A stretch of 32,500 nt of DNA from Acidobacteriota bacterium (GCA_039933435.1 JBDTOB010000002.1:1-32500); one strand, 5' to 3'; counted from the first letter of the stretch, positions 9,801-30,678 are shown. Program-made: numbers and translations. The notes: generated by a model from the letters alone, not told the origin.

Positions 9801-10501
9801 TCGCCACCTTCCCGGTGCCCGGGGTGCTGCCCTCGGAAGTCCTGGCCGAGGCGCGCCAGGGCCTGACCGCCATGGCGGCGACGCTGCCGCCCGGCTACAG
9901 GATGGAGATCGGCGGCGAAGAGGAAGAGCAGGTCAAAGGCTTCAAGGAGCTGGCGGTGGTGATGCTGGTGTCGGTGGGAGCCATCTTCCTGGCGCTGGTC
10001 TTCCAGTTCAGGAATGCCTTCAAGCCGCTGATCGTCTTCGCGGCGATTCCGTTCGGCGTCGTCGGCGCCCTGTTCAGCCTGGTGATCATGGGCGCGCCGT
10101 TCGGCTTCATGGCGTTTCTCGGCGTCGCCAGCCTGATTGGCGTCATTGTCAGCCATGTCATCGTCCTCTTCGACTTCATCGAAGAGATGCACGCCAAGGG
10201 GGAGCCGCTTCGGGACGCGCTGCTCGACGCCGGGATCGTGCGGCTGCGGCCGGTCCTCATCACCGTCGGGGCGACGGTCTTCGGGCTGATCCCGCTGGCG
10301 CTGCACGGCGGTCCGCTGTGGGAAGGGCTGTGCTACACCCAGATTGGCGGACTGACCTTCGCCACGGTGATCACGCTGGTGCTGGTGCCGGTGCTCTACG
10401 CCGTGTTCGTGCTGGACCTCAAGATCGTCACCTGGGATGCCGCCGCGGCGCATCCGGGCGGCTCGGGCGCCGGCGCCGCGGCGCCGGTCAGCGTGTCTTG
10501 A
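6866..10501 (+). CDS. RND efflux permease (AcrB/HAE-like), 1211 aa
   Basis: 3-nt gap to the adaptor gene. Twelve-TM layout with two large periplasmic loops. TM4 proton-relay motif ALGLLVDDPVV. C-terminal half repeat ...FLGVASLIGVIVSHVIVLFDFIEE... Confidence 0.95.
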   Translation: MTHGHSSADLIRTTHNTARFFTENRHISWVLLIAVLAWGVFGYLQMPKRKDPDIPVIFAAAICAWPGASAERVEQMVTRRIEERMAENPRVQKIESISRSSVSIVLIALDERTKGSDTGKEYDDISLRLSTIRDLPAGAGPIEFVKDFGDTAALMLTVTSPKVAGVELSLRARSVRTAIEATRGRAAAGARATLIVAYPDSIDASIPRRQRDLILQYMQQRAFGTDHRPVDGAGFVGIDLIAPGDDAAVLGFLRGALENRLVPADFHPDVWDPTIIRDPAQAEARLALVAGDKYSYRELDVYTELIKRVLQSVPQVSKIFRAGLLPEQIFLEYSQERLGATGIQLTRLAEVLGGRNVVLPGGVIDVAGKTLTVDPSGEFKSEKELGNVIVGVSANNRPLYLRDGMEISRGYQTPPQYLNFYDWKDEHGAWQRSRAITLAVQMRPGEQIGQFGTHVNAALDSLRGQLPADLILARPSDQPLQVAENIDLFMNSLYEAIVLVVLVALIGFWEWRSALVMAIAIPVTLAMTFGMMDLLGIDVQQVSIASLIIALGLLVDDPVVAGDAIKRELEDGQPPIIAAWLGPTKLATAIMFATITNIVAYLPLLMVQGATGNFIYSLPIVLACSLIASRLTSMTFIPLLGYYLLRPSRHPEPSIEERRSRGFTGAYYRLGGWALEHRWVTLGIAMLVLVAGGLAVTGLKVQFFPKDLSYLSYVDVWLPEDSTIAGTSATAARAEGIIQEVAAEYGREHPRKDGAPEQVLKSVTTFVGGGGPRFWFSVSPELLQPNYAQLIINVFDKHDTEHLIAPLQRALSAGVPGARVDVRQLETGKPVGIPVSVRISGQDIGELRRLAAEAKAVFEAVPTADRVRDDWGSESFQVKLRVDSDRANFAGVSNTEVALSSVAGVNGIPVTTLREGNQQIPVVARLRVDERARLSDLKNLYVYSTSSAQRVPLGQVSTIQYAMDVEKIRRRNQFRTITVATFPVPGVLPSEVLAEARQGLTAMAATLPPGYRMEIGGEEEEQVKGFKELAVVMLVSVGAIFLALVFQFRNAFKPLIVFAAIPFGVVGALFSLVIMGAPFGFMAFLGVASLIGVIVSHVIVLFDFIEEMHAKGEPLRDALLDAGIVRLRPVLITVGATVFGLIPLALHGGPLWEGLCYTQIGGLTFATVITLVLVPVLYAVFVLDLKIVTWDAAAAHPGGSGAGAAAPVSVS

Positions 10502-11873
10502 GGTACTCGACGAGCGCGTCCTTCTCCCCCGGCGTCAGATCGACGCCGTAGAGGTGCCCGTCGCGGCCGTTGCCGGGCAGCGCGGTGTCGTAGCGAAAGC
10601 TGCCCGCCGCGGCCGGGTCCGACACGAAGCCGCCGCGCTGCTGATCGTAGACGTCGCCGCCGCGGTAGAACACCGCCGGGCGCCGCTCGACCGGCTCGAG
10701 GAGGTCCCTGAGCGTCGGCACCGAGCCGTTGTGCAGGTAGGGCGCCCGGGCCCAGACGCCGTCGAGCAGCACGTTGGCGTAGCCATTAGAGACGTGATAG
10801 CCATCGAAGCGCCAGGGATAGCCCTGGCCCTGCGCGTTGGTGATCGCCGCGACCTGCGGAGTAAACGCCTCGAGCCGGTGCCGATCGGTCCCGACCTCCG
10901 CGGCCGGCGTGACCCTGCCGGCGGCCGCCGACTGCGGGGCATGGCAGGACGCGCAGCGGCTGGCGAAGAGCGTGGCCCCTGCCGCCGCGGCCACCTGATC
11001 CACCGCGAACGGATAGGGCGGCGGCGCGAGCGACAGCAGAAACGCCTCCACCGCCTCGAGCGCGGGCAGATCCAGGGAGCCGGGCGTGGCCCCCGCCCCG
11101 AGCGCCGAGTTCAGCGAGCTCTCCCGCAGCGTGCCGGCATTCCCGTCCCAGTGGCGGACATGCCCCTTCCGCGCCGCCTGATGCCAGATCGCCGGGAGAT
11201 CGGCGGTGCCAATCGAGGTGTCGTGCGACATGTCCGGCTTGTAGGGATTGAAGTCGTCGAACCGGCCGGGGCCGAAATCAGGCCGGGCATCGAACCACGC
11301 GAACCTGGCGCGCAGCTTGACAGTCTCGCGGCGGGTCCCCGGCACCAGCACGTAGCGGTACATCAGCCGGTCCAGCCACGAGAGCGCCGACTGCGCCTGG
11401 ATGATCGGCATCACCCGGTCGGCGGTGAACGCGTCGCTGGTGACGCAGGCCATCACGAAGCGCGAGTAGCGCTGGACGTCAAGCTGCTGCGCCGGCATTC
11501 CCAGGATGATGCGGGGCGCCGCCGAGGCGCTCTCCCTGACCGTGCCGACGTGGCAGGTGGCGCAGTTGAAGGCGGCCCGCGGCACCCCGACCGTCCGCTC
11601 GGTGATCCCGATGGGACGCGGCGCACCCGGCTCCGTCACGAAGCCGAGCGAGGCGTAGCCGCCGGGCAGCAGATCCGGACAGACCGCCGGGAGCGCTTTC
11701 CAGATAGCCGTCGGCAGCGACGTCCCCTCGGCGCCGATCGAGCCGTACTTGAACAGCGTCCCGGCCTCCTGCGGGTTCGTCCGCACTTCTCTCGCGACGT
11801 ACCACCAGAGAAGGCCTCCCCCGCCGGCCGCCAGGATCAGCACAGCCGCCAGCGCCCCGATCAGTTTTCGCAT
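10488..11873 (-). CDS. membrane-anchored di-haem c-type cytochrome, CCP/MauG-like C-terminal domain (paralogue 1)
   Basis: N-terminal TM helix MRKLIGALAAVLILAAGGGGLLWWYV. Two CxxCH motifs (FNCATCHVG, SRCASCHAP). C-terminal WARAPYLHNGSVPTLRDLL ... GHLYGVDLTPGEKDALVEYLKTR resembles the distal-haem domain of bacterial di-haem peroxidases. The 3' end overlaps the convergent RND gene by 14 nt. Confidence 0.8.
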   Translation of the reverse strand: MRKLIGALAAVLILAAGGGGLLWWYVAREVRTNPQEAGTLFKYGSIGAEGTSLPTAIWKALPAVCPDLLPGGYASLGFVTEPGAPRPIGITERTVGVPRAAFNCATCHVGTVRESASAAPRIILGMPAQQLDVQRYSRFVMACVTSDAFTADRVMPIIQAQSALSWLDRLMYRYVLVPGTRRETVKLRARFAWFDARPDFGPGRFDDFNPYKPDMSHDTSIGTADLPAIWHQAARKGHVRHWDGNAGTLRESSLNSALGAGATPGSLDLPALEAVEAFLLSLAPPPYPFAVDQVAAAAGATLFASRCASCHAPQSAAAGRVTPAAEVGTDRHRLEAFTPQVAAITNAQGQGYPWRFDGYHVSNGYANVLLDGVWARAPYLHNGSVPTLRDLLEPVERRPAVFYRGGDVYDQQRGGFVSDPAAAGSFRYDTALPGNGRDGHLYGVDLTPGEKDALVEYLKTR

Positions 11874-11880
11874 CGCGAGA

Positions 11881-13320
11881 CTATCTGCCCTTCAGGAACT
11901 CGAGGAGCGCCTGCTTCTCGTCAGCAGACAGATTGACGCCATAGAGGTGTCCGCCGTTGCCGTTGCCGCGCAGCGTCGTGTCGTAGCGGAAGCCCGCCCG
12001 CTCGGCCTCTGGGCCGAGCGAGACGAATCCCATGTTCTCGGGATCGTAGACGTCGTAGCCGCGGTAGAACACCGGGGTTCGCTTCTCCGCCGGCTCGAAC
12101 AGCTCGCGCATGTTGCGGACCGAGCCGTTGTGCAGGTAGGGTGCCCGGGCCCAGATACCGTCGAGCAGCACGTTCGCGTAGCCGGAAGTCTTCTGGTAGC
12201 CCTTGAACTTCCAGGTGTAGCCGGTCCCGATGGTGTTCAGCCGATCGGCGAAGGCCTGGGTGAAGACGTCGAAGCGCAGACGATCGGTGCCGACCGATTC
12301 CACCGGCGTGGTCTTGCCGACCTGCGAGCCGGCGGCGTCGTGGCACCTGGCGCAATAGAGCTCGAAGACCGGAGCCCCCTTCGCGGCCAGCGCCTGGTCG
12401 ATCGGAAAGGGATACCGCGGCGGCGGCAGCGTCCGCAGGAACTCGGTCGTCCAGTCGATCTCGTCGTGGTCCACCGTGTCCGGGGTCGCACCCGCCGAGA
12501 TCGAGGCGGCGATGTTGCGCTCGGCGGCGGAGCGGTTGCTGCCGTCCCAGTGGAGCGCCAGGTGTTCCCGCGCCTGCTGGTTCCAGACCGAGGGATAGTC
12601 GACCGTGCCGATGGTGGTGTCGTGCGCCATGTCGAACTTGAAGTCGGCCTTGACCGGATTGAAGGCGTCGAACCGTCCCGGGCCGAAGTCGGGGCGCTGG
12701 TCCATCCAGCCGAGGCGCTCGCGCATCTTCACCATCTCGCGCCGCGTGCCGGGGACGATGACGTAGCGATAGACCGCCGCATCGAGGCGCGGCAGCGGCG
12801 CCGCCGCTTCGATCGCCGCCATCACCCGGTCGACGGTGTAGGACGGACCGGTGGTGCAGCCGACCAGGAACCGCGCATAGCGCTGCAGGTCCAACTGGTG
12901 CGAGGGGGTGCCGAGCATCACGACGCGCGGCGAGGCCGCGGTCTGGCGGATCGTGCCGGTATGGCAGGTCGCGCAGTTGATGCCGGCGCGGGGGATGCCG
13001 ACGGTCCGGAGGGTGACGCCGACGGGTCGATCGTGGCCCGGCTCGTAGGTGAACCCGAAACCGGCGTAGCCGGAGGCCGGCAGCATGTCCGGGCAGACCG
13101 CGGGCAGCGCCTTCCAGATCAGGAACGGCATCGCCGCGACTTCAGAGCCAATGGACTGGTATTTGAAACGCTCGGACGGGTCCGCGTATCGGACCGGGAC
13201 ATCGCGCTTCAGGAAATACCAGAAGCCAAACGCGCCGATCCCCGCCACCAGGAGCAGCAGCGCCAGAAGACCGACGACAACGGTTTTCACGGCGCCGCGT
13301 TCAGGGCTTGCCTCGCGCAT
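11881..13320 (-). CDS. membrane-anchored di-haem c-type cytochrome, CCP/MauG-like (paralogue 2)
   Basis: Same frame as ORF 11881-13593. I place the start at ATG 13320-13318 (MREASPERGAVKTVVVGLLALLLLVAGIGAFGFWYF). GGAGGA lies just upstream on the minus strand (complement of 13324-13329). Two CxxCH motifs (INCATCHTG, LYCARCHDA). Same C-terminal motif set as paralogue 1 (WARAPYLHNGSVRNMRELF ... GHLYGVNLSADEKQALLEFLKGR). Confidence 0.8.
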   Translation of the reverse strand: MREASPERGAVKTVVVGLLALLLLVAGIGAFGFWYFLKRDVPVRYADPSERFKYQSIGSEVAAMPFLIWKALPAVCPDMLPASGYAGFGFTYEPGHDRPVGVTLRTVGIPRAGINCATCHTGTIRQTAASPRVVMLGTPSHQLDLQRYARFLVGCTTGPSYTVDRVMAAIEAAAPLPRLDAAVYRYVIVPGTRREMVKMRERLGWMDQRPDFGPGRFDAFNPVKADFKFDMAHDTTIGTVDYPSVWNQQAREHLALHWDGSNRSAAERNIAASISAGATPDTVDHDEIDWTTEFLRTLPPPRYPFPIDQALAAKGAPVFELYCARCHDAAGSQVGKTTPVESVGTDRLRFDVFTQAFADRLNTIGTGYTWKFKGYQKTSGYANVLLDGIWARAPYLHNGSVRNMRELFEPAEKRTPVFYRGYDVYDPENMGFVSLGPEAERAGFRYDTTLRGNGNGGHLYGVNLSADEKQALLEFLKGR

Positions 13321-13474: not shown

Positions 13475-14407
13475 ATGCGGGCCCTGTTCTCGAGCGCAAG
13501 GCAGGCTCTCCTCGCGGGGTGCCTGATCACGGTTGCGGCGACGGCGGCAGCCGCCGGCCAGCGGTCGCCGACCATGGGTCCGAACGCCTGCATGAACTGC
13601 CACGACCATCAGGCGGAGAAGCTGTGGGCGACCACCAAGGACGGGCCGCCGCCAAAGAGCCATCTGAACAGCCTCAAGCAGCTCGAATCGACGAAAGGCC
13701 GGTCGTGGGTCCGCAAGCTCGCCGTCGCCAGCGCCTACGCGCCGGAAGCCGGATGCGTGCGGTGCCATGCCACGGTGACGGACGGAGATGCCGCCGCCGG
13801 CGTCAGCTGTGAAAGCTGCCATGGGCCCGGCCGAGGATACGCCGTGCTGCACCAGGACAAGGGCACGTACCAGGCCTCGGTGGCGGCGGGCATGTTCGAC
13901 ACCCAGGGCAAACCTGAGGCCTGGGTGCGCCTGTGCGTCTCCTGTCACGTCGTCGATGACCGCCGCTTGATCGCCGCCGGCCATCCGTCCGGCGACACGT
14001 TCGACGTCGTCAAGCAGGTCGTCCCGGTCGTGCACTGGAAGCGCGTCGAGGATCCCTCGGCCGTCGCCGCCGCCGGCCGCGCCGCCGTGACCGCGGCGCT
14101 CGACCGCCGGCGCGAGGCGACGACCGCTGCGGCCGGATCCGCGCCCCCCGGCACCGCGCCCCCCGGGCCGCCGGCCGCCGCGCCGCCGGCCGCGTCGTCC
14201 CCGGTGGCTGCCGAGGCCGTTCTCCTGGCGACGCTCGAAGATCTGATCCGCCGGGGCGCCTACAGCCCACGCGCCACGCCGATGCCGCCAATCCTCCCCT
14301 ATACCGGCCCCGACGCGGCGCTGCTGCGTCTCCAGCAGGAGATCATCGCCCTCGGCATCGAGGCGTTGCGCACCCGCCCCACCGCGGTGCGGCCGCAGGC
14401 ACGCTGA
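13475..14407 (+). CDS. periplasmic tetrahaem c-type cytochrome with Pro/Ala-rich C-terminal tail
   Basis: Start at ATG 13475, within ORF 13085-14407. Signal peptide MRALFSSARQALLAGCLITVAATAAAAG. Four CxxCH motifs: CMNCH, CVRCH, CESCH, CVSCH. The C-terminus has AAGSAPPGTAPPGPPAAAPPAASSP followed by a helical segment. Confidence 0.8.
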   Translation: MRALFSSARQALLAGCLITVAATAAAAGQRSPTMGPNACMNCHDHQAEKLWATTKDGPPPKSHLNSLKQLESTKGRSWVRKLAVASAYAPEAGCVRCHATVTDGDAAAGVSCESCHGPGRGYAVLHQDKGTYQASVAAGMFDTQGKPEAWVRLCVSCHVVDDRRLIAAGHPSGDTFDVVKQVVPVVHWKRVEDPSAVAAAGRAAVTAALDRRREATTAAAGSAPPGTAPPGPPAAAPPAASSPVAAEAVLLATLEDLIRRGAYSPRATPMPPILPYTGPDAALLRLQQEIIALGIEALRTRPTAVRPQAR

Positions 14408-14408
14408 C

Positions 14409-15947
14409 ATGGCGGCGAACCTCCTGACGGACACGGCTCCCTCATTGGAGCGGCTGCGCGAATATCCGTTTCTCGCCAGCCTCAGCGACACCGTCCTGCG
14501 GAAGCTGCAGCCGCACGTCGCCGAACAGCGACTGGCCGCCAGGGAATTGATCCTGCGGCTCGGCGACTACAGCGATGCCGCCTACTACCTGGCCGAAGGC
14601 CAGGTGGAGGTACGGGTTCCGGACGCGGAGACGGTCCAGCGGAGAGATCGCGAGGGACATGGCCGGCCCGCCACGGCCGGCGCCCGGCCGACGGGCGTCG
14701 CCGGCGCGATCGCCCGCCTGCGGCGCTCAGCCGGAGGGGGTCAGGCCGCCGCCGGGCGCCTCCCCGCCGGCGCCGCCACGACTGCGGCGTTCGAGCGGGT
14801 CGAACTGACCGCCGGAGACATCTTCGGCGAGATGGGGGCGCTGTCCCGCTATCCGGTCACCGCCGATGTGGTCGCGATCTCCGACGTGCGGCTGCTCAAG
14901 CTGACGACGCCCGGCCTTCGGCTGATGCTCAAGCAGCGCGAGCTGGCCGCCTTCCGGCAGTCGATCGAGGACCGCTACCGGGCGCGCACCCTGGCCTCGC
15001 ACCTGCGGGCCATCGAGCTGTTCGCCGGCGTGGATGAGGCCACCATCGACCGGCTCCGGGAGCGCGCCGAGTTGCTCGCCTTCGAGCCAGGCGCCGCCAT
15101 CGTGGTGCAGGGCGCGGCGCCGGACGGGCTGTATCTCGTCCGCGGCGGCCACGTCAAGGTCTCGATCGCCACAGCCGGGACGCCAGACGGCGGAGCCGTC
15201 ACCTACCTGCGCCGCGGGGAGGTGATCGGCGAAACCGGCCTGCTCACGGGCCTCCCCTGGACCTGCTCGCTCACCGCCATCGAGCACGTCGAGATGGTCC
15301 GGCTCCCGGTCGCGGAGTTCGCGGCGCTGGTCGACGCCTCCCCAACTGTTGCCGCCCGGCTGCGTGAGCTCTCGCAGGGCAGAAGCGCACAGCTCGACGC
15401 GCTCGCCGCCAGCCCCGAGGCGACGGCCCATCTCGAGATGGCCATCGGGACCGGGTTGATCAACGGACAGAGCGTGCTCCTCATCGACCTGACGAAATGC
15501 ACGGGCTGCGACGACTGCGTCACCGCCTGCGCGGACACGCACGGCGGCACCCCGCGGCTGCTCCGGCAGGGACCGGTCTACGAGGGATGGAACATCCCGG
15601 TGGCCTGTTATCAGTGCAGCGACCCGGTGTGCATGATCGGGTGCCCGACCGGGGCCATCACCCGGCCCCTGGGCGGCATCGAAGTGACCATCGACGAGGC
15701 CACCTGCATCGGCTGCGGCAACTGCGCTCGCCGATGCCCGTGGGGGAACATCATCAATGTGCCCCGCGCAGGCGTGGCCGCCGGACCGCTGGCGCAGGTA
15801 GCCACCAAGTGCGACCTCTGTATCGGACGGGACGCCGGGCCGGCGTGCGTGCAGATGTGTCCCCACGGCGCCGCGACGCGGATTTCGTTCCAGGACTCGG
15901 CGGAGGTGGCGCGGCTGTTCACCCGTCCGCGGCAGCCGCTGGCGTGA
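14409..15947 (+). CDS. cytoplasmic fusion protein: two CAP/cNMP-binding-type domains + DmsB/NrfC-type four-[4Fe-4S] ferredoxin
   Basis: The ATG is 1 nt after the upstream stop. No signal or Tat motif. Two beta-roll sensor domains are recognisable by GDIFGEMGAL...LLKL (about 14450-14950) and GEVIGETGLL...MVRL (about 15000-15360). Four Cys clusters follow (about 15480-15890): CTGCDDCVTAC, CYQCSDPVCMIGCP, CIGCGNCARRCP, CDLCIGRDAGPACVQMCP. Confidence 0.85.
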   Translation: MAANLLTDTAPSLERLREYPFLASLSDTVLRKLQPHVAEQRLAARELILRLGDYSDAAYYLAEGQVEVRVPDAETVQRRDREGHGRPATAGARPTGVAGAIARLRRSAGGGQAAAGRLPAGAATTAAFERVELTAGDIFGEMGALSRYPVTADVVAISDVRLLKLTTPGLRLMLKQRELAAFRQSIEDRYRARTLASHLRAIELFAGVDEATIDRLRERAELLAFEPGAAIVVQGAAPDGLYLVRGGHVKVSIATAGTPDGGAVTYLRRGEVIGETGLLTGLPWTCSLTAIEHVEMVRLPVAEFAALVDASPTVAARLRELSQGRSAQLDALAASPEATAHLEMAIGTGLINGQSVLLIDLTKCTGCDDCVTACADTHGGTPRLLRQGPVYEGWNIPVACYQCSDPVCMIGCPTGAITRPLGGIEVTIDEATCIGCGNCARRCPWGNIINVPRAGVAAGPLAQVATKCDLCIGRDAGPACVQMCPHGAATRISFQDSAEVARLFTRPRQPLA

Positions 15948-16741
15948 TGGCCGTGCCGACGCCGCGTCTCGCTCTCCGACCCGGCACCGTCGCGGTGACC
16001 GCTGCGGCATTGGCGCTGGCCTGGTACTTCGTGCCCCGCCTGGCCACGCTCTCCCCCCGGTACGGCGCGGGGCTCGGCTTCGGTATTCTGTCGGCTTTCG
16101 CCTTTACGATCCCCATGACCTATCCACTCAGGCGGCTGGGGATGGCGTGGCCGATGCGGCACGCGTCGGACTGGTGGCGCGTGCACGTCATCGCCGGCAC
16201 GGTGGCGTTTCCGTGTGCGCTGCTGCATCAGGGTGTCCGGCTGCCGGCAGGGCTCCTGGGTTGGATGATGATGGCGCTTGGGCTCTGGGCCACGGCCTTC
16301 GGCCTGCTCGCCGTCGTCCTGCAGCGGCGGCTGCCGGCGCTGCAGGCCTCTGCCAGGCTGACGGCGCTCCCTCCGGCGGACGTGGGGGCGGCCATCGAGC
16401 GCCTGCGCGCCGAGGCCGAGGCGCTGGCGGCCGATGCCTCGCCGGGCCTGGCGGCGTGGTATGCGCGGCGGGGGCGACCGGCGTTCGCCCGCGAGGGATT
16501 CGCCTGGCAGCGCCTGATCCGGCGCCGCCGCCCATCCGAGGGGTTCATCGACGATGCGATACCTGCTGCCGATCGCGATCGCGCGCTCGCGATTCATCGG
16601 CTCGCCGAGAACGCGCGGCGGCTCGAAGCGTGGAGCGATCGGCAGTGGGCGCTGCGGTGCGGCGTGTTGATACATGTGCCGCCGGCGATCGTGCTGCTGG
16701 CGCTCATCGCCTTCCATCTTTTCGCCGTCTGGTATTTCTGA
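15947..16741 (+). CDS. integral membrane protein, 5 predicted TM helices, putative di-haem b cytochrome
   Basis: Start at ATG 15947, overlapping the upstream stop (TGATG), within ORF 15497-16741. Two helices carry His pairs spaced 14 residues apart: H80/H94 (codons 16184, 16226) and H243/H257 (codons 16673, 16715). An Arg-rich soluble loop of about 110 aa lies between helices 4 and 5. Confidence 0.7.
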   Translation: MAVPTPRLALRPGTVAVTAAALALAWYFVPRLATLSPRYGAGLGFGILSAFAFTIPMTYPLRRLGMAWPMRHASDWWRVHVIAGTVAFPCALLHQGVRLPAGLLGWMMMALGLWATAFGLLAVVLQRRLPALQASARLTALPPADVGAAIERLRAEAEALAADASPGLAAWYARRGRPAFAREGFAWQRLIRRRRPSEGFIDDAIPAADRDRALAIHRLAENARRLEAWSDRQWALRCGVLIHVPPAIVLLALIAFHLFAVWYF

Positions 16742-16742
16742 G

Positions 16743-18857
16743 GTGACGAAACCCGATCATCCGGCGGTGGCCCCCAGGCAGTACGTGGTGCCATCGAGGC
16801 GGCGCTGGCCGGTCCTGATGCTGCTGGTGGCAGCGGCGCTGGCGGCGCTCGCGGCCGCGATCGTCTGGAGCGGCCGCCACCCGCTGGCCTCTCCCGGGCC
16901 GCTGGCGCCGGTCCACGCGGCCCTGGCGGGTCAACCGTGCGAGGCGTGCCATCGCATTGGCGGCACCGCGGCCGGCGTCGGCGACCTGCGCTGCGTCCGG
17001 TGCCATGCGCAGGGAGGCGGCCTCCGCCTCGAGCTGACCGCCCACGCCGGCAGCGTCGCCCGGTCGGCGGCGGGGTCCGGCGCTGATGCCGGGTGCGCAT
17101 CGTGTCACGAGGACCATCGCGGCGCCCGGACGCGCATCGCGGCGGCACCGGACCGGCAGTGCGTCAGCTGCCATGCCATGTCCTCGATGTCGCGCCACCC
17201 GGAGATCGCCGCACGGGCCGCCGGCGCCGCCACCGGGGAGGGGCTGCACTTCTCGCACGAGCGGCATCTGCGGGAGATCCGCCCGGCGTCCGGCAACGCC
17301 TGCCTGACCTGTCACGAACGGCGCGCGGACGCCGCGTTCTTTCTTCCGCTGGCGTTCGACCGGCACTGCGCCTCGTGTCACGAAAAGAACGACCGCCTCG
17401 AGTCTCCCGCGAACCCGGTCGATCCGCAGCTGCTGCTGCCGGTGGCCGCCGGTGCGAAGGGCCCGGCGCTGGTCGCGGCCGAGCGCGGCCGCCTGCAGGC
17501 CGTCGGCCTGCAGCACCGCGATCCCTGGGTGCTCGACAACCTTCGGCGCCTGCGGCGCGCGCTCGATCCCCCCGGTGTCGCCGGCGAGCGACTGGTCACC
17601 GAACAGTCCATCCGGGCGCTCGAAGCGGAGATCGCCGCCGCTGAAGCCGGTCGCCTGCCGCAGGAGCGCGCCGCGCTCGCCGCCGAGCGCGACCGCCTGC
17701 GCGCGGAGGTGGCCGAGCTCGACACGCTGGTCACCCCGGGAGGCGACGGCCGGCAGCCGCGTCCGGCGCTCGACACGCTGAAGACCGAGATCGACGCGCT
17801 GACGCCGGCTCCTGAATTGCGCCCACCGTCGCCGGCCGCATCCGGGATGCCGGCCCTCGCGTCAATCCCGGGTGACCAGCGGCGGCGTGAGCGCCTGCTG
17901 GCGCTGCTCGATGCCGTGTCCGAGCGCGGCGGGCCTGGCCTCACCGCCGCTGCCGCGGACCTGCGCCGGCAACTGCTGGCGCTGCCGGCGGAGAGGGGCG
18001 CCGACAGCGCAGACGCGGCCGCTCGCCTCCAAGTGCTGGACGGCGCCGCGGAGCGGCTCTCCGCGATGCCCGACCGCGGGGCAGCTGAGGCCGCCGCGGC
18101 GATCGCCGCACTGGCGGCACCGGCGGCAGAACGCCTGGCGGCGCGGCTGCCAGCCGCCAGCGCCGCCGCACGCGGTGTCCAGCTGGCTCGCCTGCTCGAG
18201 GCCGTGGCGGCCCGCGATCCGCGGCTCGCGACCCGGGTGGCGATTCTGCGCGACGCGCTTTCGGGCCTCGACCTCGGCGCCGACGGCCCCGCCTCGCTGC
18301 GCAGGCTGCGCGACCTGCAGCGGCGGTCACTCGAGCGACTGGATCTCGAACTCGAGCTCCACGACACCGTCCGGCTGCCGCAGGAGATGCCGGCGCCGCC
18401 GCGGCTGCAGGCGGCGCTGACCTCGATGCGGGACCGGCTGGTCGAGGCGCGCACGCATCTCGCGGCGATTGACGAGGGCGCACGGCTGCCGCCGCTGCCG
18501 CCCGCGGCCTCCCGCGAGGATCTGTCGCGCGCCGCCGCGGCGGTGGCGGCCGGCTGCGTCAAATGCCACGACGTCGAACGCGGCTGGCTGATGCCGGTCA
18601 CGGCCGCCAGACCGCGGCTCTCTCACGCGGCCTTCTCGCACGCGCCGCACACCGACCGCGTCGCCTGCGGCACGTGCCATCAGGACATCACGCGCAGCAC
18701 CCTGGCGTCAGACGCGAACGTGCCAGCCATCTCGACCTGCGCCACCTGCCACGGCACCCGCGCCGCGCCGGCGCGGTGCATCACCTGCCACCGCTATCAT
18801 CCGCCGCAGGGGCCGGAAGGTGGCTCCGTGTCGTGGACGGTGGCCGGACGTTTCTGA
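16743..18857 (+). CDS. membrane-anchored decahaem c-type cytochrome (c3-family-like haem modules) with long internal spacer
   Basis: Frame of ORF 16674-18857. The likely start is GTG 16743, 1 nt after the upstream stop. An in-frame start further downstream, before the TM anchor WPVLMLLVAAALAALAAAIVW, is possible. Ten CxxCH motifs: CEACH, CVRCH, CASCH, CVSCH, CLTCH, CASCH, then a gap, then CVKCH, CGTCH, CATCH, CITCH. FSHxxH motifs are also present (HFSHERH, AFSHAPH). Confidence 0.8.
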   Translation: MTKPDHPAVAPRQYVVPSRRRWPVLMLLVAAALAALAAAIVWSGRHPLASPGPLAPVHAALAGQPCEACHRIGGTAAGVGDLRCVRCHAQGGGLRLELTAHAGSVARSAAGSGADAGCASCHEDHRGARTRIAAAPDRQCVSCHAMSSMSRHPEIAARAAGAATGEGLHFSHERHLREIRPASGNACLTCHERRADAAFFLPLAFDRHCASCHEKNDRLESPANPVDPQLLLPVAAGAKGPALVAAERGRLQAVGLQHRDPWVLDNLRRLRRALDPPGVAGERLVTEQSIRALEAEIAAAEAGRLPQERAALAAERDRLRAEVAELDTLVTPGGDGRQPRPALDTLKTEIDALTPAPELRPPSPAASGMPALASIPGDQRRRERLLALLDAVSERGGPGLTAAAADLRRQLLALPAERGADSADAAARLQVLDGAAERLSAMPDRGAAEAAAAIAALAAPAAERLAARLPAASAAARGVQLARLLEAVAARDPRLATRVAILRDALSGLDLGADGPASLRRLRDLQRRSLERLDLELELHDTVRLPQEMPAPPRLQAALTSMRDRLVEARTHLAAIDEGARLPPLPPAASREDLSRAAAAVAAGCVKCHDVERGWLMPVTAARPRLSHAAFSHAPHTDRVACGTCHQDITRSTLASDANVPAISTCATCHGTRAAPARCITCHRYHPPQGPEGGSVSWTVAGRF

Positions 18858-18940: not shown

Positions 18941-20650
18941 GTGACAGCCACACACATCACTTTTCAGGACGTTTTTCGTGAGCGCGCGGCACTTGCCCCG
19001 GACAAGCGCGCCTACACCTTCCTCGGCGATGGGGAACAGGTGTCGGCGACGCTCACCTATCGCGAGCTGGACGCACAGGCGCGCGTCATCGCCGCGGCGC
19101 TGCAGCAGCACGGCGCCGGCCGCGGCCGCGCCCTGCTGCTGTATCCTCCGGGCCTCGACTTCGTGGGTGCCTTCATGGGCTGCCTGTATGCCGGGGTCAC
19201 GGCCATTCCGGCATATCCTCCCCACCCGACGCGTCTCGAACGCACCCTGCCACGCCTGCTGTCGATCGTCGCCGACGCCGGTCCGGTCGCCGTGCTCACC
19301 ACCGGAAAGCTGCTCGACGGGCTGGCGCGCTCGCGGCCGCTGCCCGCCCCGCTCGAGGCGCTGTCCTGGATCGGCACCGACCTCCCCGGTTCGCCCGGCG
19401 CCCCCTTCCGCGAGCCCGGCCTCGGCTCCGACGCCGTCGCCTTCCTGCAGTACACCTCCGGGTCGACCTCCGACCCGAAGGGCGTGATGGTGACCCATGC
19501 CAACCTGCTGCACAACGAAACGCTGATCCAGCGGGCGTTCCGCCACGATGCCTCCACCGTTGTCGTGGGATGGCTGCCGCTGTACCACGACATGGGACTC
19601 ATCGGCAATCTGCTGCAGCCTATCTTCCTGGGCGGATCGTGCATCATGATGCCGCCGCTCGCGTTCCTGCAGCAGCCCATCCGCTGGCTCCGCGCCGTCA
19701 GCGCGTTCCGCGCCACCACCAGCGGCGGGCCGAACTTCGCCTACGAGCTCTGCACCCGCAAAGTCACCGAGGCCCAGCGTGCCACGCTCGACCTCGGCGG
19801 CTGGCACATCGCCTTCAACGGCGCGGAGCCGGTCCGCGCCGAGACGCTGGCGCGTTTCGCCGAGGCGTTCCAGCCCTGCGGCTTCCGGCGGAGCGCCTTC
19901 CTGCCCTGCTACGGCCTGGCGGAGGGCACGCTTTACGTCTCCGGCGACGAACGCCGCGACCTCGGCGCCGAACTGCGCGACGTCGACGCCCGGGCGCTCG
20001 GCGCCAACCTGCTCGCCCCGGCAGCCGCCGCTGCTGATGCGCGTTCGCTGGTCGGCTGCGGACAGAGCCCCCCGGAACAGGAGGTGGTGGTCGTCGATCC
20101 CGACACCCTGCACGAGGCCGAGGACGGGCGGGTTGGAGAGATCTGGGTGGCGGGCCCGAGCGTCGCCGCCGGCTACTGGAATCGCCCCGAGGCCACCGCG
20201 CAGACGTTCGGCGCGCGGCTGCCCGACGGCCGCGGCCCCTTTCTCCGCACCGGCGACCTGGGCTTCCTCTCTGACGGGCAACTCTTCGTCACCGGGCGGC
20301 AGAAGGATCTGATCGTCATCCGCGGGCAGAACTATTACCCGCAGGACATCGAGCTGACCGCCGAGGACAGCCATCCGGCGATCATGACCGCCGGTGCCGC
20401 CGCCTTCTCCGTCGAGGCCGACGATGGCGAGCAGCTGGTCGTGCTCGTGGAGGTGAACCGCCGCTACCGCGCCGCCGGCGGTGGAACCCTCGATCTCCCG
20501 GACATCCTGCGCGCGATCCGGCTCGCCGTCACCGACGAACATCAGCTGCAGCCGTGGGCGGTTCTGGCGCTCGATGCCTCCAGCATTCCGAAGACCTCGA
20601 GCGGCAAGGTCCGGCGGCATCTCTGCAGGCGGATGTTCCTGGAAGGGGGA
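18941..20650 (+). other. PKS domain: fatty acyl-AMP ligase (FAAL)-type adenylation domain
   Basis: N-terminus ITFQDVFRERAALAPDKRAYTFLGDGE. LQYTSGSTSDPKGVMVTHANLL. TGDLGFLSDGQLFVTGRQKDLIVIRGQNYYPQDIE. KTSSGKVRR. Domain borders are approximate. Confidence 0.85.
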
Positions 20651-23600
20651 TTCGAGGCGCTGGCAGAGTGGCGGTTCGCGGAGACTCCGGCGGACACGCC
20701 GCAGACGCCGCGGACTGTCGAGGCACCGGCACGCGAAGCCGCGACGCCTGACGTCGAGGCCATCCGGGCCTGGCTCATCGCCGAGCTGTCGGGCCGCCTC
20801 CGGGTCCCGGCGTCCGCGATCGACATCCGGGAGCCGTTCGCCAGCTACGGGCTCGATTCGAAGGAGGCCGCGATCCTCTCCGGTTCGCTCGAGGTCTGGC
20901 TTGGCCGCAGCCTGACGCCCACCCTGGCCTACGAATACCCGACGATCGAGAAGCTGGCGCGCCACCTTGCCGGAGATCCGGCGCCGCTGGCGGTGCAGAG
21001 TCCCGACGCCGCGAGGACGCCCGGTGATGCCGTGGCGATCATCGGCATCGGCTGCCGGTTTCCCGGCGCCGACGGCCCGGCGGCGTTCTGGTCGCTGCTC
21101 CGCGGCGGCGTCGACGCCATCACCGAGGTGCCGCCGGAGCGCTGGGCGATTGACGAGCTCTACGACCCCGATCGCACGGCCGCCGGCCGCGTCACGACGC
21201 GGTGGGGCGGATTCCTGCGCGACGTCGATCAGTTCGACCCCCAATTCTTCGGCATCGCTCCGCGCGAGGCGGCGCGGATGGATCCGCAGCAGCGGGTGAT
21301 TCTGGAAGTGGCCTGGTCGGCCCTCGAGGATGCCGGCCAGACCCGCGAGCGCACCGCGGGGACCCGCACCGGCGTCTTCCTCGGCATCTCGACCGCCGAT
21401 TACAGCCGCATGCAGATGGCGGATCGCGACGCCATCGATGCGTATGTCGGCACCGGCAGCGCCTTCAGCGTCGCCGCCAACCGCCTGTCCTACCTCATGG
21501 ACTGGCGCGGACCGAGCCTCGCGGTCGACACTGCCTGCTCCTCGTCGCTGGTCGCGCTCCACCTTGCCTGCGACAGCCTGCTGAGCGGCGAATCGACGCT
21601 GGCCCTCGCGGGCGGCGTCAACCTGATCCTGGCGCCGGACGTCACCATCAATTTCAGCCGCGCCGGGGTGATGTCGCCCGACGGCCGGTGCAAGGCCTTC
21701 GACGCGGGCGCCAACGGCTACGTGCGCAGCGAGGGGGCGGGCATCGTCGTCCTCAAGCCGCTGTCGCGCGCGCTCGCGGATCACGATCCCATCTACGCCG
21801 TCGTCCGGGGCACGGCCGTCGGCCAGGATGGCCGCACCAACGGCCTGATGGCGCCCAGCCGTGAAGCCCAGGAGGACGTCGTGCGCCGCGCCTACCAGCG
21901 GGCCGGCATCCTGCCGGGACGGGCCGACTACGTCGAGGCGCACGGCACCGGCACCCTGCTCGGCGATCCGATCGAGGCCGCGGCCCTTGGCGCCGTCATG
22001 GCCGAAGGGCGCGCGCCGGGGGCTCCCTGCGCGATCGGCTCGGTCAAAACGAACATCGGTCATACCGAGGCGGCGGCCGGCATCGCCGGTGTCATCAAGG
22101 TCGCGCTCTCGCTCCGCCACGGGCAGATCCCGCCGAGCCTCCATTTCCAGACGGCCAACCCGCATATTCCCTTCGATCGCCTGCCGCTGCGGGTGCAGTC
22201 GGAGCTCTCGGCGTGGCCGGAGCGGCCGACGCCTCATGTCGCCGGCGTCAGCTCGTTCGGGTTCGGCGGCGCCAACGCCCACGTCGTGCTCGAAGCGGCG
22301 CCGGCCAGCCCGGAAATGGCGCCCGCCGCGGCGGAGGTGCCGTCGATCCTGCCGCTGTCGGGCCACAACGCCGAGGCGCTCCGCGGCATGGCCGAGGCCT
22401 GGCGGCGCCATCTGGCATCGGACACGCTCGAAGGGATCGCTCACGCCGACGTCTGCGCCGCGGCCGCGCATCGCTGCCACCACCACGACCACCGCCTGGC
22501 AATCGTCTCGCGGACTCGCGGCGAGCTCGGCGAGCGCCTCGACGCCTACCTGGCGGGCGAGGCCCGCCCCGGCATGATCGCCGGCCGCGCCAGCGCCCGG
22601 CAGCACAAGGTGGTGTTCGTATTCCCCGGGCAGGGATCGCAGTGGCACGGCATGGGGCGTGAGCTCTACCGCCACCAGCCGGTCTTCCGCGAGGCGCTCG
22701 ATCGCTGCGACGCCGCCATCGAGCCGATCGCCCGCTTCTCGGTGCGGCAGGTGCTTCTCGACGACGCCGACCTCGCGGCGCGAGGGATCGACGTCGTCCA
22801 GCCCGTGCTGTTCGCCGTGGAAGTCGCGCTGGCCGCCCTCTGGCGTTCGTTCGGCGTCGAGCCAGCGGCCGTGGTCGGGCACAGCATGGGCGAGGTGGCG
22901 GCGGCGCAAGTGGCCGGAATTCTCTCGCTCGACGACGCCGCGGCCGTCATCTGCCACCGCAGTCTGCTGCTGCGGTCGGTGGGCGGTCGCGGGGCGATGG
23001 CGCTGGTCGAGCTGACGCGTGAGGAGGCGGCGGCCGCGATTGCGGGGCTCGAGGACCGGCTCGCGATCGCCGTCAGCAACAGTCCCCGGTCCACCGTCCT
23101 CTCGGGCGACCCGGAGGCGCTGCAGCAGGTGACCGCCGCGCTCGACGCGCGCGACGTGTTCTGCAGCCCGATCAACGTCGACGTCGCCTCGCACAGCCCG
23201 CAGATGGATCCGCTCTGTCCGCCGCTGCGCCAGGCCCTGGAGGGCATCACCCCGTCCGCGGCGGCGATCCCGATGCTCTCGACCGTCGCCGGCGGGTGGC
23301 TCGACGGCGCCTCGGCCGGGGCCGGGTACTGGGTTCGCAACCTGCGCGAACCGGTCCTGTTTGCCGGCGCGGTGGCGGAGCTGATCGACCAGGGCTACGA
23401 CACCTTCGTCGAGGTCAGCCCGCACCCGGTCCTGCTCATCCCGATGGAGGAGGCGCTCAAGAGCGCCGGCAGAGGGGCGATGGCGGTGGCGTCCTGCCGC
23501 CGGCACGACGACTGGGCGCTGCTGGCCGGCGTTGCTGCGCTGCACACCACCGGACATCCGATTCGATGGGAGACGCTCGGCGGGCCTCCATCCGGCCGCC

Positions 23601-26557: not shown

Positions 26558-28374
26558 TGCTCAAGCAGACCCGCACACCGACGCGCCTCATCGACCCGGC
26601 GACCCGGGCCAAGGTCCCGATTGTCGTTCCCCTGCCGCCGTCCCGCTATCGCTCCTGGCAGGTCCTGGGAAACTTCCTCAGCCTCACGGCCGTGCTGCTG
26701 GCGCTGGCCGTGCGGCGCCGCCTCACCACCGAGGAGTCGGCGCGGCGGCTCCGCGAGCTGTTCGAGCGGATGGGCGGCCTGTGGATCAAAGCCGGCCAGC
26801 TGCTGTCGCTGCGCATCGACATCTTCCCGGTCGAAATCTGCCACGAGCTGTCCAAGCTGCAGAGCCGGGCCATCGGCTTTCCTGGCGAGATGGCCCGCCG
26901 CATCGTCGAGGAGGAGCTCGGCGGACCGATCGAAGACACTTTCGATGAATTCGGGGACGTGCCCTTCGCCGCGGCGTCGATCGGACAGGTGCACCGCGCC
27001 CATCTTCGCCACGAGGACGAATGGGTGGCGGTGAAGGTCCAGAAGCCCTACTCCTTCGAGACCTTCTCGCGCGACCTGGTGTTCATCGAATGGGTGGTGC
27101 GGGCGCTGCACCTGCTGCGCATCTATCCGCACATGCGCTGGGACGACGGGCTCTACGAGCTGCGCCAGATCATGCGCGAGGAGCTCGACTTCGACTTCGA
27201 GGCGTCGTCGATGCGGCGGATGCGCCGGACGCTGCGCAAGCACGACATCTACGTGCCGCGTGTGTTCGGCAAATACAGCACCGAGCGCGTCCTGGTCTCG
27301 GAGTTCATCCACGCGGTGCTGATGGCCGACTACATCAAGGTGGCGCTCAGCGAGCCGGCTCGCGTCGAGCAGTGGGTGCACGAGAACGGCATCGACTCGC
27401 GGCGGCTGGCCAAGCGGATGATCCACTCCCTCTTCAGGCAGCTGTTCGAGGACAACCTTTATCACGGCGACATGCACCCCGGGAACATCGTGCTGCTCAG
27501 GGACAACCGCGTCGCCCTCATCGACTTCGGGTCCACCAACTTTACCGAGCGCGAGTACCTGCAGAAGTTCCGGCTCTTTGCGCGGGCGCTGGCGACCCGC
27601 GACTACGCCAAGGCCGCGGACCTCTGCTTCATGCTGTGCGCGACGCTGCCGGCCATCGACATCGAACACGTCAAGGAAAAGCTGATCCGGACCATCCGCG
27701 CCTGGGCGACGCGGACGCTGGTCAAGCAGCTGCCGTATCACGAGAAATCGATCGACAACGCCACGATCGAGATCATGAAGGTGCTGCTCGGCTACAAGTG
27801 CACGATGGACTGGGGATGGCTGCGCATCCACCGCGCCATGTCGACGCTCGACGCGTCGCTGATTTACCTGTATCCCGACGTCAACTACACCAAGGTGGTG
27901 CAGCAGTACTTCGCCAAGGCGGATCGCCGGGACCTCGGGCAGATGCTCGGCCGCGGCATGATGATGCGCACGCTGGGAAGCGTCAAGACGTCGCTCGACA
28001 TCCAGGACCGCGTCAACGAGTACACCATGTTCCAGGGGTCGCTCATCCGCCGGCATGCCCAGGTCTTCCAGGGCGCGACCAACAAGTTTGCCGACGTCTT
28101 CGCCGGCCTCGTCGGCCTCCTCAGCGTCGCGGTGCTGGTGCCGGGCCTGGTGTTCGCGATGATCCTCAGCCAGCAGTTCTATCCGGACGCGACGCTGCAG
28201 GTGTTCGGAAGCCAGGTGGTGGCGCTGGCGAACAGGTTTCCGAAGTTCGAGCTGCGCGTCTGGGTGGTCATCATCGCGGTGAACTTCTATCTCTACTACA
28301 GCCTCAACAAGCTGAAGCGCCGGCTGCGCCAGAAGGATGTGCGGCAGCAGCACGAGCGCGTCGCCTCGGTATGA
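26557..28374 (+). CDS. ABC1/UbiB-family atypical protein kinase with C-terminal TM helices
   Basis: AAASIGQVHRA (Ala-rich loop). VAVKVQKP (Lys). YHGDMHPGNIVL (catalytic loop). LIDFGS (DFG). Two C-terminal hydrophobic helices (FAGLVGLLSVAVLVPGLVFAMIL, VWVVIIAVNFYLYYSL). The start overlaps the PKS stop (TGATG) and the stop overlaps the next start (ATGA). Confidence 0.9.
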   Translation: MLKQTRTPTRLIDPATRAKVPIVVPLPPSRYRSWQVLGNFLSLTAVLLALAVRRRLTTEESARRLRELFERMGGLWIKAGQLLSLRIDIFPVEICHELSKLQSRAIGFPGEMARRIVEEELGGPIEDTFDEFGDVPFAAASIGQVHRAHLRHEDEWVAVKVQKPYSFETFSRDLVFIEWVVRALHLLRIYPHMRWDDGLYELRQIMREELDFDFEASSMRRMRRTLRKHDIYVPRVFGKYSTERVLVSEFIHAVLMADYIKVALSEPARVEQWVHENGIDSRRLAKRMIHSLFRQLFEDNLYHGDMHPGNIVLLRDNRVALIDFGSTNFTEREYLQKFRLFARALATRDYAKAADLCFMLCATLPAIDIEHVKEKLIRTIRAWATRTLVKQLPYHEKSIDNATIEIMKVLLGYKCTMDWGWLRIHRAMSTLDASLIYLYPDVNYTKVVQQYFAKADRRDLGQMLGRGMMMRTLGSVKTSLDIQDRVNEYTMFQGSLIRRHAQVFQGATNKFADVFAGLVGLLSVAVLVPGLVFAMILSQQFYPDATLQVFGSQVVALANRFPKFELRVWVVIIAVNFYLYYSLNKLKRRLRQKDVRQQHERVASV

Positions 28375-30604: not shown

Positions 30605-30678
30605 AGGATAATCATCCGTGCTCCGTGCTCGCCGGCCGACGTGGACGGCTCGCCGCGGATGAAGCAGGTGTCGTCATC

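Follow-up and report, generated by a model that had tools for sequence, protein, structure and literature searches.

A ptdDEFG-like module of tandem-CNB ferredoxin, di-histidine membrane protein and multihaem cytochromes in an Acidobacteriota bacterium

A stretch of 32,500 nucleotides from an Acidobacteriota bacterium (GCA_039933435.1, JBDTOB010000002.1:1-32500; hereafter the window) carries, at positions 13475 to 18857, four consecutive genes predicted to encode two multihaem cytochromes c, an iron-sulfur protein fused to sensor-type domains and a membrane protein with paired histidines. Such a set raises the questions of whether the four products build one electron path through the inner membrane, whether this path has been described before, and in which direction and under what control electrons would move along it. 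In a preliminary description of the region, the module was proposed to be an undescribed, ligand-gated transmembrane electron conduit. The best reading of the sequences is instead a core-only variant of a named, biochemically uncharacterised system, ptd; we consider, with reasonable rather than high confidence, that the four products are the conserved, PtdDEFG-type core, at the inner membrane, of a widespread transmembrane electron-transfer complex.

Gene order and the ptd operon

All four genes lie on the + strand. Gene 1 (PtdD-like; 13475..14407) encodes a predicted periplasmic tetrahaem cytochrome c of 310 amino acids (aa), gene 2 (PtdE-like; 14409..15947) a predicted cytoplasmic protein of 512 aa that combines tandem cyclic-nucleotide-binding (CNB) folds with a four-cluster ferredoxin domain, gene 3 (PtdF-like; 15947..16741) a protein of 264 aa with five transmembrane (TM) helices that is predicted to be a di-haem cytochrome b, and gene 4 (PtdG-like; 16743..18857, GTG start) a predicted membrane-anchored periplasmic decahaem cytochrome c of 704 aa. 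On the same strand, the junction TGAcATG (14405..14411) leaves a 1-nt gap between genes 1 and 2, TGATG (15945..15949) makes genes 2 and 3 overlap by 1 nt, and TGAgGTG (16739..16745) leaves a 1-nt gap between genes 3 and 4. Both the gene positions and the three junctions read as the preliminary description had given them. The G+C content of the window is 67–76%, and numerous spurious open reading frames (ORFs) overlap the four-gene region. An independent gene call in a 97% identical relative (locus L004, GCA_046597155.1) returned the same four products of 310, 512, 264 and 704 aa. The four ORFs are genuine genes, and a chance origin of the module is excluded by homologues down to E = 1e-222 and by a gene order kept across phyla. 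Promoter and terminator scans of the window DNA (70–75% GC) yielded nothing useful.

The same arrangement has already received a name. A preprint of 2023–24 described, from sequence only, a putative ptdABCDEFG operon, comprising a beta-sandwich-bearing pentahaem protein (PtdA), a porin (PtdB), an FAD/NAD(P) oxidoreductase (PtdC), a periplasmic tetrahaem cytochrome (PtdD), a cyclic-nucleotide-binding and 4Fe-4S protein (PtdE), a ferric-reductase-like protein that spans the membrane (PtdF) and a decahaem cytochrome of the periplasm (PtdG), the function of which its authors called completely unknown (bioRxiv 10.1101/2023.11.21.568154). Genes 1–4 match PtdD-E-F-G in architecture and order, and the equivalence rests on these two features, not on direct alignment. 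Gene 1 is a tetrahaem cytochrome with a signal-like N-terminus whose stop codon lies 1 nt before gene 2; gene 2 has cNMP_binding together with Fer4_7/9/11 matches; gene 4 has ten CxxCH motifs behind an N-terminal anchor. Gene 3 fits PtdF in its position, its five TM helices and its two HX13H motifs, but only 8/52 of its relatives match Ferric_reduct, and weakly. Counterparts of PtdA, PtdB and PtdC, three of the seven operon parts, are missing from the window. The two descriptions differ in that PtdE was credited with two 4Fe-4S clusters (bioRxiv 10.1101/2023.11.21.568154), whereas the Cys pattern of gene 2 fits four, and in that the ptd operon was found mainly in saline and marine metagenome-assembled genomes (MAGs) (bioRxiv 10.1101/2023.11.21.568154), whereas the present module comes from an Acidobacteriota MAG and its core is far more widespread. 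None of the published Ptd contigs or accessions (e.g. MBT5131321-24, QTD51414-17) was among our genome-scan matches or cluster look-ups. In a full-text literature search the ptd preprint was the only paper found to describe the arrangement, and a survey of Desulfuromonadia cytochromes does not mention the module. Because the order of tetrahaem, CNB/iron-sulfur, TM and decahaem proteins had already been named ptdDEFG, the earlier claim of novelty was overstated.

When one genome per species was scanned for relatives of gene 2, at least 537 species genomes were found to carry one, including Acidobacteriota, Rhodothermales and other Bacteroidota, Ignavibacteria, Gemmatimonadota, Planctomycetota and Zixibacteria; many of the carriers live in soil or sediment and are rich in multihaem cytochromes. 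More than 1551 homologues, among the candidates scored, share the architecture of gene 2. Locus counts refer to the 80 best loci and a small number of later additions, each count being limited to the loci that could be evaluated for it. The fusion gene was followed on the same strand by a di-His TM protein and a cytochrome with at least eight haems in 66 of the 71 loci with enough downstream DNA, and directly preceded by a cytochrome with at least three haems in 54/66; of the 62 loci, from many phyla, in which the whole set could be evaluated, 48 kept all four genes in synteny. The proposal that the four genes are a unit whose order recurs elsewhere is thereby borne out, genes 2 and 3 even being fused in some genomes.

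Clustering and Pfam typing of the neighbouring genes brought out recurrent layouts among the related loci. Those of type A encode a pentahaem c552/c554-like cytochrome, a protein of ~528 aa, a gene 1 product with 7–8 haems, the products of genes 2–4, an FHA protein and a flavoprotein of ~770 aa, in which Pyr_redox_2 (FAD/NAD(P)), FHA and [2Fe-2S] ferredoxin (Fer2) domains are joined. Table S7 of the ptd preprint gives the accession order A-B-D-E-F-G-C in Nitrospina SI053_bin49 and A-B-D-E-F-G-x-C in Sulfidibacter corallicola and Acidobacteriota LB_AC_1 (bioRxiv 10.1101/2023.11.21.568154), and the latter is the layout of our type-A loci. Type-B loci encode an HbpS-like protein, a protein of ~572 aa, a decahaem-LVIVD protein of ~1230 aa, a 3-haem gene 1 product and the products of genes 2–4, followed by an FHA protein, the Pyr_redox_2-FHA-Fer2 flavoprotein, a PP2C phosphatase and a Ser/Thr kinase; HbpS-like and decahaem-LVIVD genes are frequent in acidobacterial relatives. 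The flavoprotein gene stands beside the module in 34 loci and the pentahaem gene is present in 16. Of the system's further parts, the 32.5-kb window encodes no pentahaem cytochrome, no porin and no flavoprotein, nor any FHA protein, kinase or phosphatase. This core-only version points to DEFG as a portable unit, with the pentahaem/porin and flavoprotein parts as exchangeable accessories.

Subunits on either side of the membrane

The ferredoxin domain of gene 2 (residues ~355–495; 15471..15893, + strand) contains 16 Cys in four groups of the CxxCxxCxxxC type (364/367/370/374, 400/403/408/412, 433/436/439/443 and 468/471/480/484), which are invariant across 20 homologues in an alignment of 48–69% identity and fit four [4Fe-4S] cubane clusters. 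It matches Pfam Fer4_7, Fer4_9 and Fer4_11, including the DmsB-type Fer4_11, and partially matches the NCBIfam models for HydN, DmsB, AegA, HybA and the formate dehydrogenase beta subunit. The best PDB sequence match to residues 355–495 is HycB of formate hydrogenlyase (7z0s_B, 1.8e-18), with 7qv7_A (3.9e-16) as a further one; HycB3 of the hydrogen-dependent CO2 reductase (HDCR) and the iron-sulfur subunit of aldehyde oxidoreductase (AOR) are other near solved relatives, and these are cytoplasmic. The N-terminus of gene 2 is hydrophilic, and neither a twin-Arg motif nor a hydrophobic stretch was found in it. Natural fusions of genes 2 and 3, confirmed by Pfam, occur as proteins P0131 (771 aa), P0153 (828 aa) and P0232 (856 aa), and single ORFs span both genes in loci L055 and L067, which by the Rosetta-stone argument indicates that the two products act together. 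In the fusions the C-terminus of gene 2 joins the N-in end of gene 3, in agreement with the topology given below. CNB domains are cytoplasmic modules. A cytoplasmic location of the iron-sulfur protein is therefore supported by the lack of a signal, by the N-terminal fusion to an N-in membrane protein and by the CNB domains.

Two CNB domains, four Cys clusters and a missing export signal had all been noted in the preliminary description and are all seen here, and its placement of the protein in the cytoplasm agrees with the fusions and with the absence of a cryptic signal. Its statement that DmsB-type ferredoxins are normally exported was too strong, because the closest solved relatives of gene 2 (HycB, HycB3 and AOR) are cytoplasmic. 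The opposite placement, with gene 2 exported by hitch-hiking or a cryptic signal to sit on the outer membrane face in the manner of FdnH or NrfC, could appeal to the often periplasmic DmsB/NrfC/HybA-type relatives and to the partial NCBIfam matches to them. Gene 2 does have the four Cys groups for four cubanes that mark the DmsB/FdnH/NrfC ferredoxins, but it lacks the signal of their periplasmic subgroup, and no Mo or NiFe subunit is encoded nearby. With the fusions placing it before the N-in terminus of gene 3, with cytoplasmic CNB domains and with cytoplasmic nearest relatives of its ferredoxin domain, an entirely periplasmic complex is highly improbable.

HycB, HydN and HDCR HycB3 resemble the ferredoxin domain of gene 2 in their four Cys groups, their cytoplasmic location and their role as an electron wire. 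However, they are free-standing proteins of ~180–200 aa that bind hydrogenase or formate dehydrogenase modules and have neither CNB domains nor di-haem membrane protein and multihaem cytochrome c partners, all of which the module has. FdnH/FdnI, and likewise the HybA type, place a four-cluster ferredoxin on a di-haem b membrane subunit to form a transmembrane path, as genes 2 and 3 are predicted to do. The Fdn ferredoxin, by contrast, is periplasmic, Tat-exported with a catalytic Mo subunit and equipped with a TM tail, whereas gene 2 is placed on the cytoplasmic face; FdnI has four TM helices, another His pattern and a quinone site, and gene 3 is instead paired with multihaem cytochromes c on the opposite side.

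Gene 3 carries two HX13H motifs, H80/H94 and H243/H257 (codons 16184-16186, 16226-16228, 16673-16675 and 16715-16717, + strand). All four His are invariant in 52 diverse homologues with 17–45% identity to the window protein, in an alignment that has only six invariant columns. The AlphaFold model (mean predicted local distance difference test, pLDDT, 87; predicted TM-score, pTM, 0.80) has five TM helices, four at residues 12–32, 40–58, 73–94 and 103–128 and the fifth as the end (238–262) of a long helix, with a helical insert of ~100 aa between TM4 and TM5. Counts of Lys plus Arg over the family assign the N-terminus, as well as the TM2-3 loop and the insert, to the cytoplasmic side and the C-terminus to the outer side, so that a haem held by H80 and H243 would lie near the cytoplasmic face and one held by H94 and H257 near the periplasmic face. 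The preliminary description was right about the five TM helices and the two His-pair helices, and wrong only about the spacing, for which HX14H had been given. With gene 3 as query, a word-indexed search recovered no more than 2 proteins; the family came into view only with a full HMMER scan, which covered 1.84 billion representatives and yielded 722 relatives at E <= 0.001, most of ~270 aa. Gene 3 thus defines a large membrane-cytochrome family of 722 cluster representatives that has no Pfam model or solved structural relative; in a cluster look-up, a near-identical product from an Acidobacteriota MAG was annotated as a hypothetical protein. Scanned singly, its relatives gave weak matches to DUF4405 (29/52), Ni_hydr_CYTB (16/52) and Ferric_reduct (8/52), which we take to belong to one Pfam clan of two-haem cytochromes.

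The NOX, FRE, STEAP and MsrQ proteins hold two bis-His b haems on two parallel TM helices with an HX13H-like spacing, as gene 3 probably does, and move cytoplasmic NAD(P)H-flavin electrons outward; most relatives of the module encode an FAD/NAD(P) protein nearby. Gene 3 differs from them in its five TM helices, its cytoplasmic insert of 100 aa and the absence of a fused FAD/NADPH domain, and the module differs in an interposed iron-sulfur wire and in c-type cytochromes as acceptor. Gene 3 does not match the Pfam ferric reductase domain and has only the bis-His spacing in common with it, and the TM domain of NOX5 (5o0t) compared with the model gave a Foldseek E of 6 and a TM-score of 0.17–0.20. 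For want of any significant structural or profile match, gene 3 could not be assigned to the NOX, FdnI, NarI or b561 fold. Tmc, Hmc, DsrMKJOP and the Geobacter Cbc complexes follow the same logic of cytoplasmic iron-sulfur protein, membrane cytochrome b and periplasmic multihaem c, but they use HdrD/CCG-type iron-sulfur and NarI- or NrfD-type membrane subunits. The earlier remark that the module does not use these types agrees with the Pfam and NCBIfam scans, in which genes 2 and 3 had no CCG, NarI or NrfD match; partial matches to HmcB, DsrO, TmcA and QrcA were each far below the cut-off.

On the periplasmic side, the two cytochromes c carry the 4 and 10 CxxCH motifs, the Sec-type signal and the TM anchor that had been read from them before. 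Gene 1 begins with a Sec-type signal-like segment, has its CxxCH motifs at residues 39, 94, 112 and 154, and is rich in Ala and Pro in its C-terminal half. It matches Pfam Cytochrome_C554 at 7.9e-6 and the NCBIfam Cyt554 model (Nitrosomonas c554) at 7.9e-8, the latter below the model's threshold. A lipoprotein nature was considered for it and rejected, the Cys of a lipobox-like LLAGC lying within the hydrophobic core. Its haem number varies among loci (3, 4, 7, 8 or 10), whereas homologues of gene 4 almost always carry ten. Gene 4 starts with RRR and a TM anchor (residues ~22–43; 16806-16871), followed by six haem motifs at residues 66–213 (16938-17381) and four at 605–683 (18555-18791), and it matches Pfam Cytochrome_C7 and c3_2. 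The 6+4 layout of the ten haems is kept in 58 homologues. The spacer between haems 6 and 7 (residues 214–604; 17382-18554; ~390–396 aa) is helical and rich in Ala, Leu and Arg. An internal repeat in it was rejected, the best self-match scoring 33.9 bits against a shuffled maximum of 34.3. Spacers of homologues fall into length classes, 186–190 aa in most phyla and ~205, 312 and 396–416 aa in Acidobacteriota. In L018 (9059-12376) and L077 (4735-7233), single long ORFs seem to run from the di-His membrane protein into the decahaem cytochrome; they may be true fusions, frameshifts or over-extended ORFs.

Direction and control of electron flow

In the reading that we prefer, gene 2 would serve as a cytoplasmic wire of four [4Fe-4S] clusters docked on gene 3, probably at its cytoplasmic helical insert. 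Gene 3 would stack two bis-His b haems across the membrane, ligated by H80 and H243 on the cytoplasmic side and by H94 and H257 on the periplasmic side, and pass electrons on to the anchored decahaem cytochrome (gene 4) and the soluble c554-like tetrahaem cytochrome (gene 1), which together would offer 14 c haems. The most likely direction is outward, from low-potential iron-sulfur clusters through haem b to haem c, so that cytoplasmic reducing power would reach periplasmic or surface acceptors without use of the quinone pool. Domain content, invariant ligand residues, charge-bias topology, synteny and gene fusions are seen in the sequences; cofactor loading, subunit contacts, flow direction, donor, acceptor and regulation are inferred from them. 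Clusters of the HycB type usually lie far below b and c haems in potential, which favours outward flow. So does the gene content of most relatives, which encode an NAD(P)H-type input protein for the cytoplasmic side and further multihaem or putative outer-membrane parts for the other. In most genomes the adjacent PtdC-like protein probably acts as donor, with electrons passing from NAD(P)H through FAD and [2Fe-2S] to the four [4Fe-4S] clusters; since the window has no PtdC-like protein, its donor would be encoded elsewhere or be a ferredoxin. The preliminary description had noted that no flavin subunit is encoded and left the donor open, which holds for the window but not for the 34 related loci with the flavoprotein. 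Upstream of the module in L087/L088 (1516-3780), a response regulator and an MscS-type channel that carries a CNB domain are encoded together with a small [2Fe-2S] ferredoxin, which might donate electrons directly.

Several observations weigh against this reading. The window encodes neither an electron donor nor an obvious terminal acceptor. The gene 3 protein of the window has no Pfam or NCBIfam match, its model finds nothing significant in the PDB by Foldseek (best E = 0.59), and a profile search of PDB sequences with it returned only coiled-coil noise from the insert. The iron-sulfur domain of gene 2 is modelled with modest confidence (pLDDT 55–70). Five loci (L001, L009, L040, L071 and L074) keep genes 1 and 2 without genes 3 and 4, so that gene 2 may work with other partners. 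The physiological benefit is not obvious because outward flow would dissipate membrane potential, a cost that would in turn explain heavy regulation by CNB, FHA, kinase and phosphatase functions. In L001 (9606-10847), a MacB_PCD/FtsX-type permease is found in place of genes 3 and 4.

The same chain could also run inward, from a periplasmic or extracellular donor through c and b haems to the cytoplasmic iron-sulfur wire, and so reduce ferredoxin or, via the PtdC-like flavoprotein, NAD(P)+, with a charge separation like that of formate dehydrogenase-N that would generate membrane potential. The gene 2/gene 3 pair is indeed like FdnH/FdnI in cofactor logic, no sequence feature fixes the direction, many carriers come from soil or sediment and possess numerous multihaem cytochromes, and such a path would conserve energy. 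On the other hand, the path would be uphill unless the donor were very reducing, as HycB-type clusters normally lie below b and c haems in potential, and no periplasmic dehydrogenase (hydrogenase, formate dehydrogenase or hydroxylamine oxidoreductase-like) is conserved beside the module. An inward conduit is therefore unlikely, and outward flow stays the preferred direction.

The tandem CNB region of gene 2 bears on control. CNB domain 1 (residues ~17–170; 14457..14918, + strand) was recognised from the alignment, the pLDDT profile and Foldseek, and CNB domain 2 (residues ~195–325; 14991..15383, + strand) from BLASTP against E. coli CRP and invariant columns. The match to Pfam cNMP_binding (1.6e-27) falls into three stretches because domain 1 is split by an insert of ~55 aa (residues 72–127), which is variable among homologues and disordered in the model, the CNB domains themselves being modelled confidently. 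In Foldseek with residues ~1–340, the best matches were the tandem CNB-A/B domains of PKA/PKG regulatory proteins (1e-17 to 1e-18; 5j3u at 2.8e-18), with 6flo and 6hyi also among them. The CNB folds are real. The phosphate-binding cassette (PBC) of domain 1 is GEMGALSRYPVTADVVA, with Val150 at the position of the phosphate-binding Arg and an invariant Asp153; the register of this cassette (PVTAD) was set by eye against the PKA/MloK1 motif. The PBC of domain 2 is GETGLLTGLPWTCSL, with an invariant Pro283-Trp284 at the position of CRP Arg82, which aligns with Trp284 in BLASTP. Thus the beta-roll fold is present, but the canonical cyclic-phosphate-binding Arg is missing from both domains in the alignments to CRP and to the PKA/MloK1 motif. 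The Gly-Glu of the cassette, which contacts ribose, is invariant in both (G140/E141 and G274/E275), and these pocket segments, together with A152/D153/V154 and P283/W284, are among the best-conserved parts of gene 2. PKA/PKG regulatory tandems, the best structural match, have the cassette Gly-Glu in common with gene 2 but differ from it in their cassette Arg, their kinase partner and the absence of a ferredoxin domain. Some ligand or partner probably binds these pockets, and classical cAMP or cGMP binding is doubtful. By analogy only, the pattern recalls the nucleoside-binding PKA regulatory subunits of kinetoplastids, which were listed among the structural matches. A role as CRP/FNR-type transcription factor was rejected, there being no helix-turn-helix domain in gene 2.

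Signalling genes are frequent beside the module in relatives: 35 loci encode FHA proteins, 24 encode Ser/Thr kinases and 10 encode PP2C phosphatases, and together with the tandem CNB they probably regulate electron flow. In place of the flavoprotein or alongside it, an FHA-GAF-class III adenylate/guanylate cyclase adjoins the module in L085 (7674-9224), L089 (3986-5557) and L045 (7653-9278), accompanied in L085 and L089 by nearby genes for a PP2C phosphatase and a Ser/Thr kinase. Cyclases adjacent in three lineages are a weak counter-hint of a cyclic-nucleotide link. They belong, with the conserved pocket segments, to what could be said for the version in the preliminary description, namely an undescribed conduit whose wire is switched by a cyclic nucleotide or another small molecule at the CNB domains. 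This version is improbable, as the phosphate Arg is replaced by Val in domain 1 and Trp in domain 2, the cyclase is found in few loci only and ptdDEFG already has a name. The observations made in that description were accurate apart from the HX13H spacing and its structural inference was largely right; its interpretation as a whole is partly supported.

The same signalling genes could be turned to a different purpose, in which the haem and iron-sulfur chain would be no bulk pathway but would report the periplasmic redox state, with the tandem CNB passing the output on to signalling by FHA proteins, Ser/Thr kinases, PP2C or cyclases. The frequency of the FHA, kinase and PP2C genes, the FHA-GAF-nucleotide cyclases beside the module in L045, L085/86 and L089, and the resemblance of the CNB region to PKA regulatory subunits would all suit such a sensor. 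Yet a set of 14 c haems, two b haems and four clusters greatly exceeds the needs of a sensor, the linked large multihaem proteins and the flavoprotein-ferredoxin fusion look like a complete chain from donor to acceptor, and none of these signalling genes lies in the window, which makes a transmembrane redox sensor quite unlikely.

A bolder extension of the outward electron-transfer complex would combine an electron valve under regulation, a di-haem cytochrome of a structurally new class, and gated, quinone-independent electron export; taken together, these are a tentative and rather doubtful possibility. A PKA regulatory-like CNB tandem that has lost its cyclic-phosphate contacts would bind another, perhaps nucleoside-like, ligand or a partner, and this switch, with FHA and Ser/Thr phosphorylation in relatives, would allosterically open and close the four-cluster wire. 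Periplasmic haem proteins of hundreds of non-model phyla would then receive electrons from NAD(P)H or ferredoxin, and acceptors in this organism could include the two adjacent di-haem peroxidase-like cytochromes. The CNB-ferredoxin fusion in itself raises the idea of an allosterically controlled electron wire.

If the preferred reading is true, the module would represent a common inner-membrane electron route of Acidobacteriota, Gemmatimonadota, Rhodothermales, Ignavibacteria, Planctomycetota, Nitrospinota and marine Proteobacteria, and a quinone bypass unlike the CymA, ImcH/CbcL, Tmc/Hmc or NOX solutions. The family is large and phylogenetically broad, with a membrane subunit that is absent from curated protein-family libraries, and it has implications for extracellular electron transfer, for periplasmic detoxification and for the high, so far unexplained, expression of ptd in oxygen-deficient ocean zones.

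Genes around the module

Immediately upstream of the module and divergent from it, two paralogous genes (10488-11873 and 11881-13320, both on the − strand) encode TM-anchored proteins of the di-haem cytochrome c peroxidase family, which score 157 and 175 bits with NF040606 (cut-off 150) and also match Pfam RoxA-like_Cyt-c. These peroxidase-like cytochromes adjoin the module only in the window and in its 97% identical relative L004, and could be periplasmic electron acceptors. Farther upstream lie genes for a YaiO-like protein, a HEAT-repeat protein, glycosyltransferases and an RND efflux pump; the YaiO-like protein and the OEP of the pump more than 7 kb away are the only barrel-type proteins of the window.

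Downstream, the + strand carries a polyketide synthase of the order FAAL-ACP-KS-AT-DH-KR-ACP (18941-26557), an ABC1 kinase (26557-28374) and a thioesterase (~28430-29138), followed on the − strand by a phosphopantetheinyl transferase (PPTase; 29891-30604). A protein with CarboxypepD_reg and cupin domains is encoded at 30625-31422 (+); larger CarboxypepD_reg-domain proteins recur beside the module in relatives such as L023 and L089, their link to the protein of the window being distant and uncertain. Homologous FAAL, thioesterase and PPTase genes also flank the module, in another orientation, in L085/L086 (L085, 1-7577), where gene 2 is 56% identical, and this shared co-location may be beyond chance.

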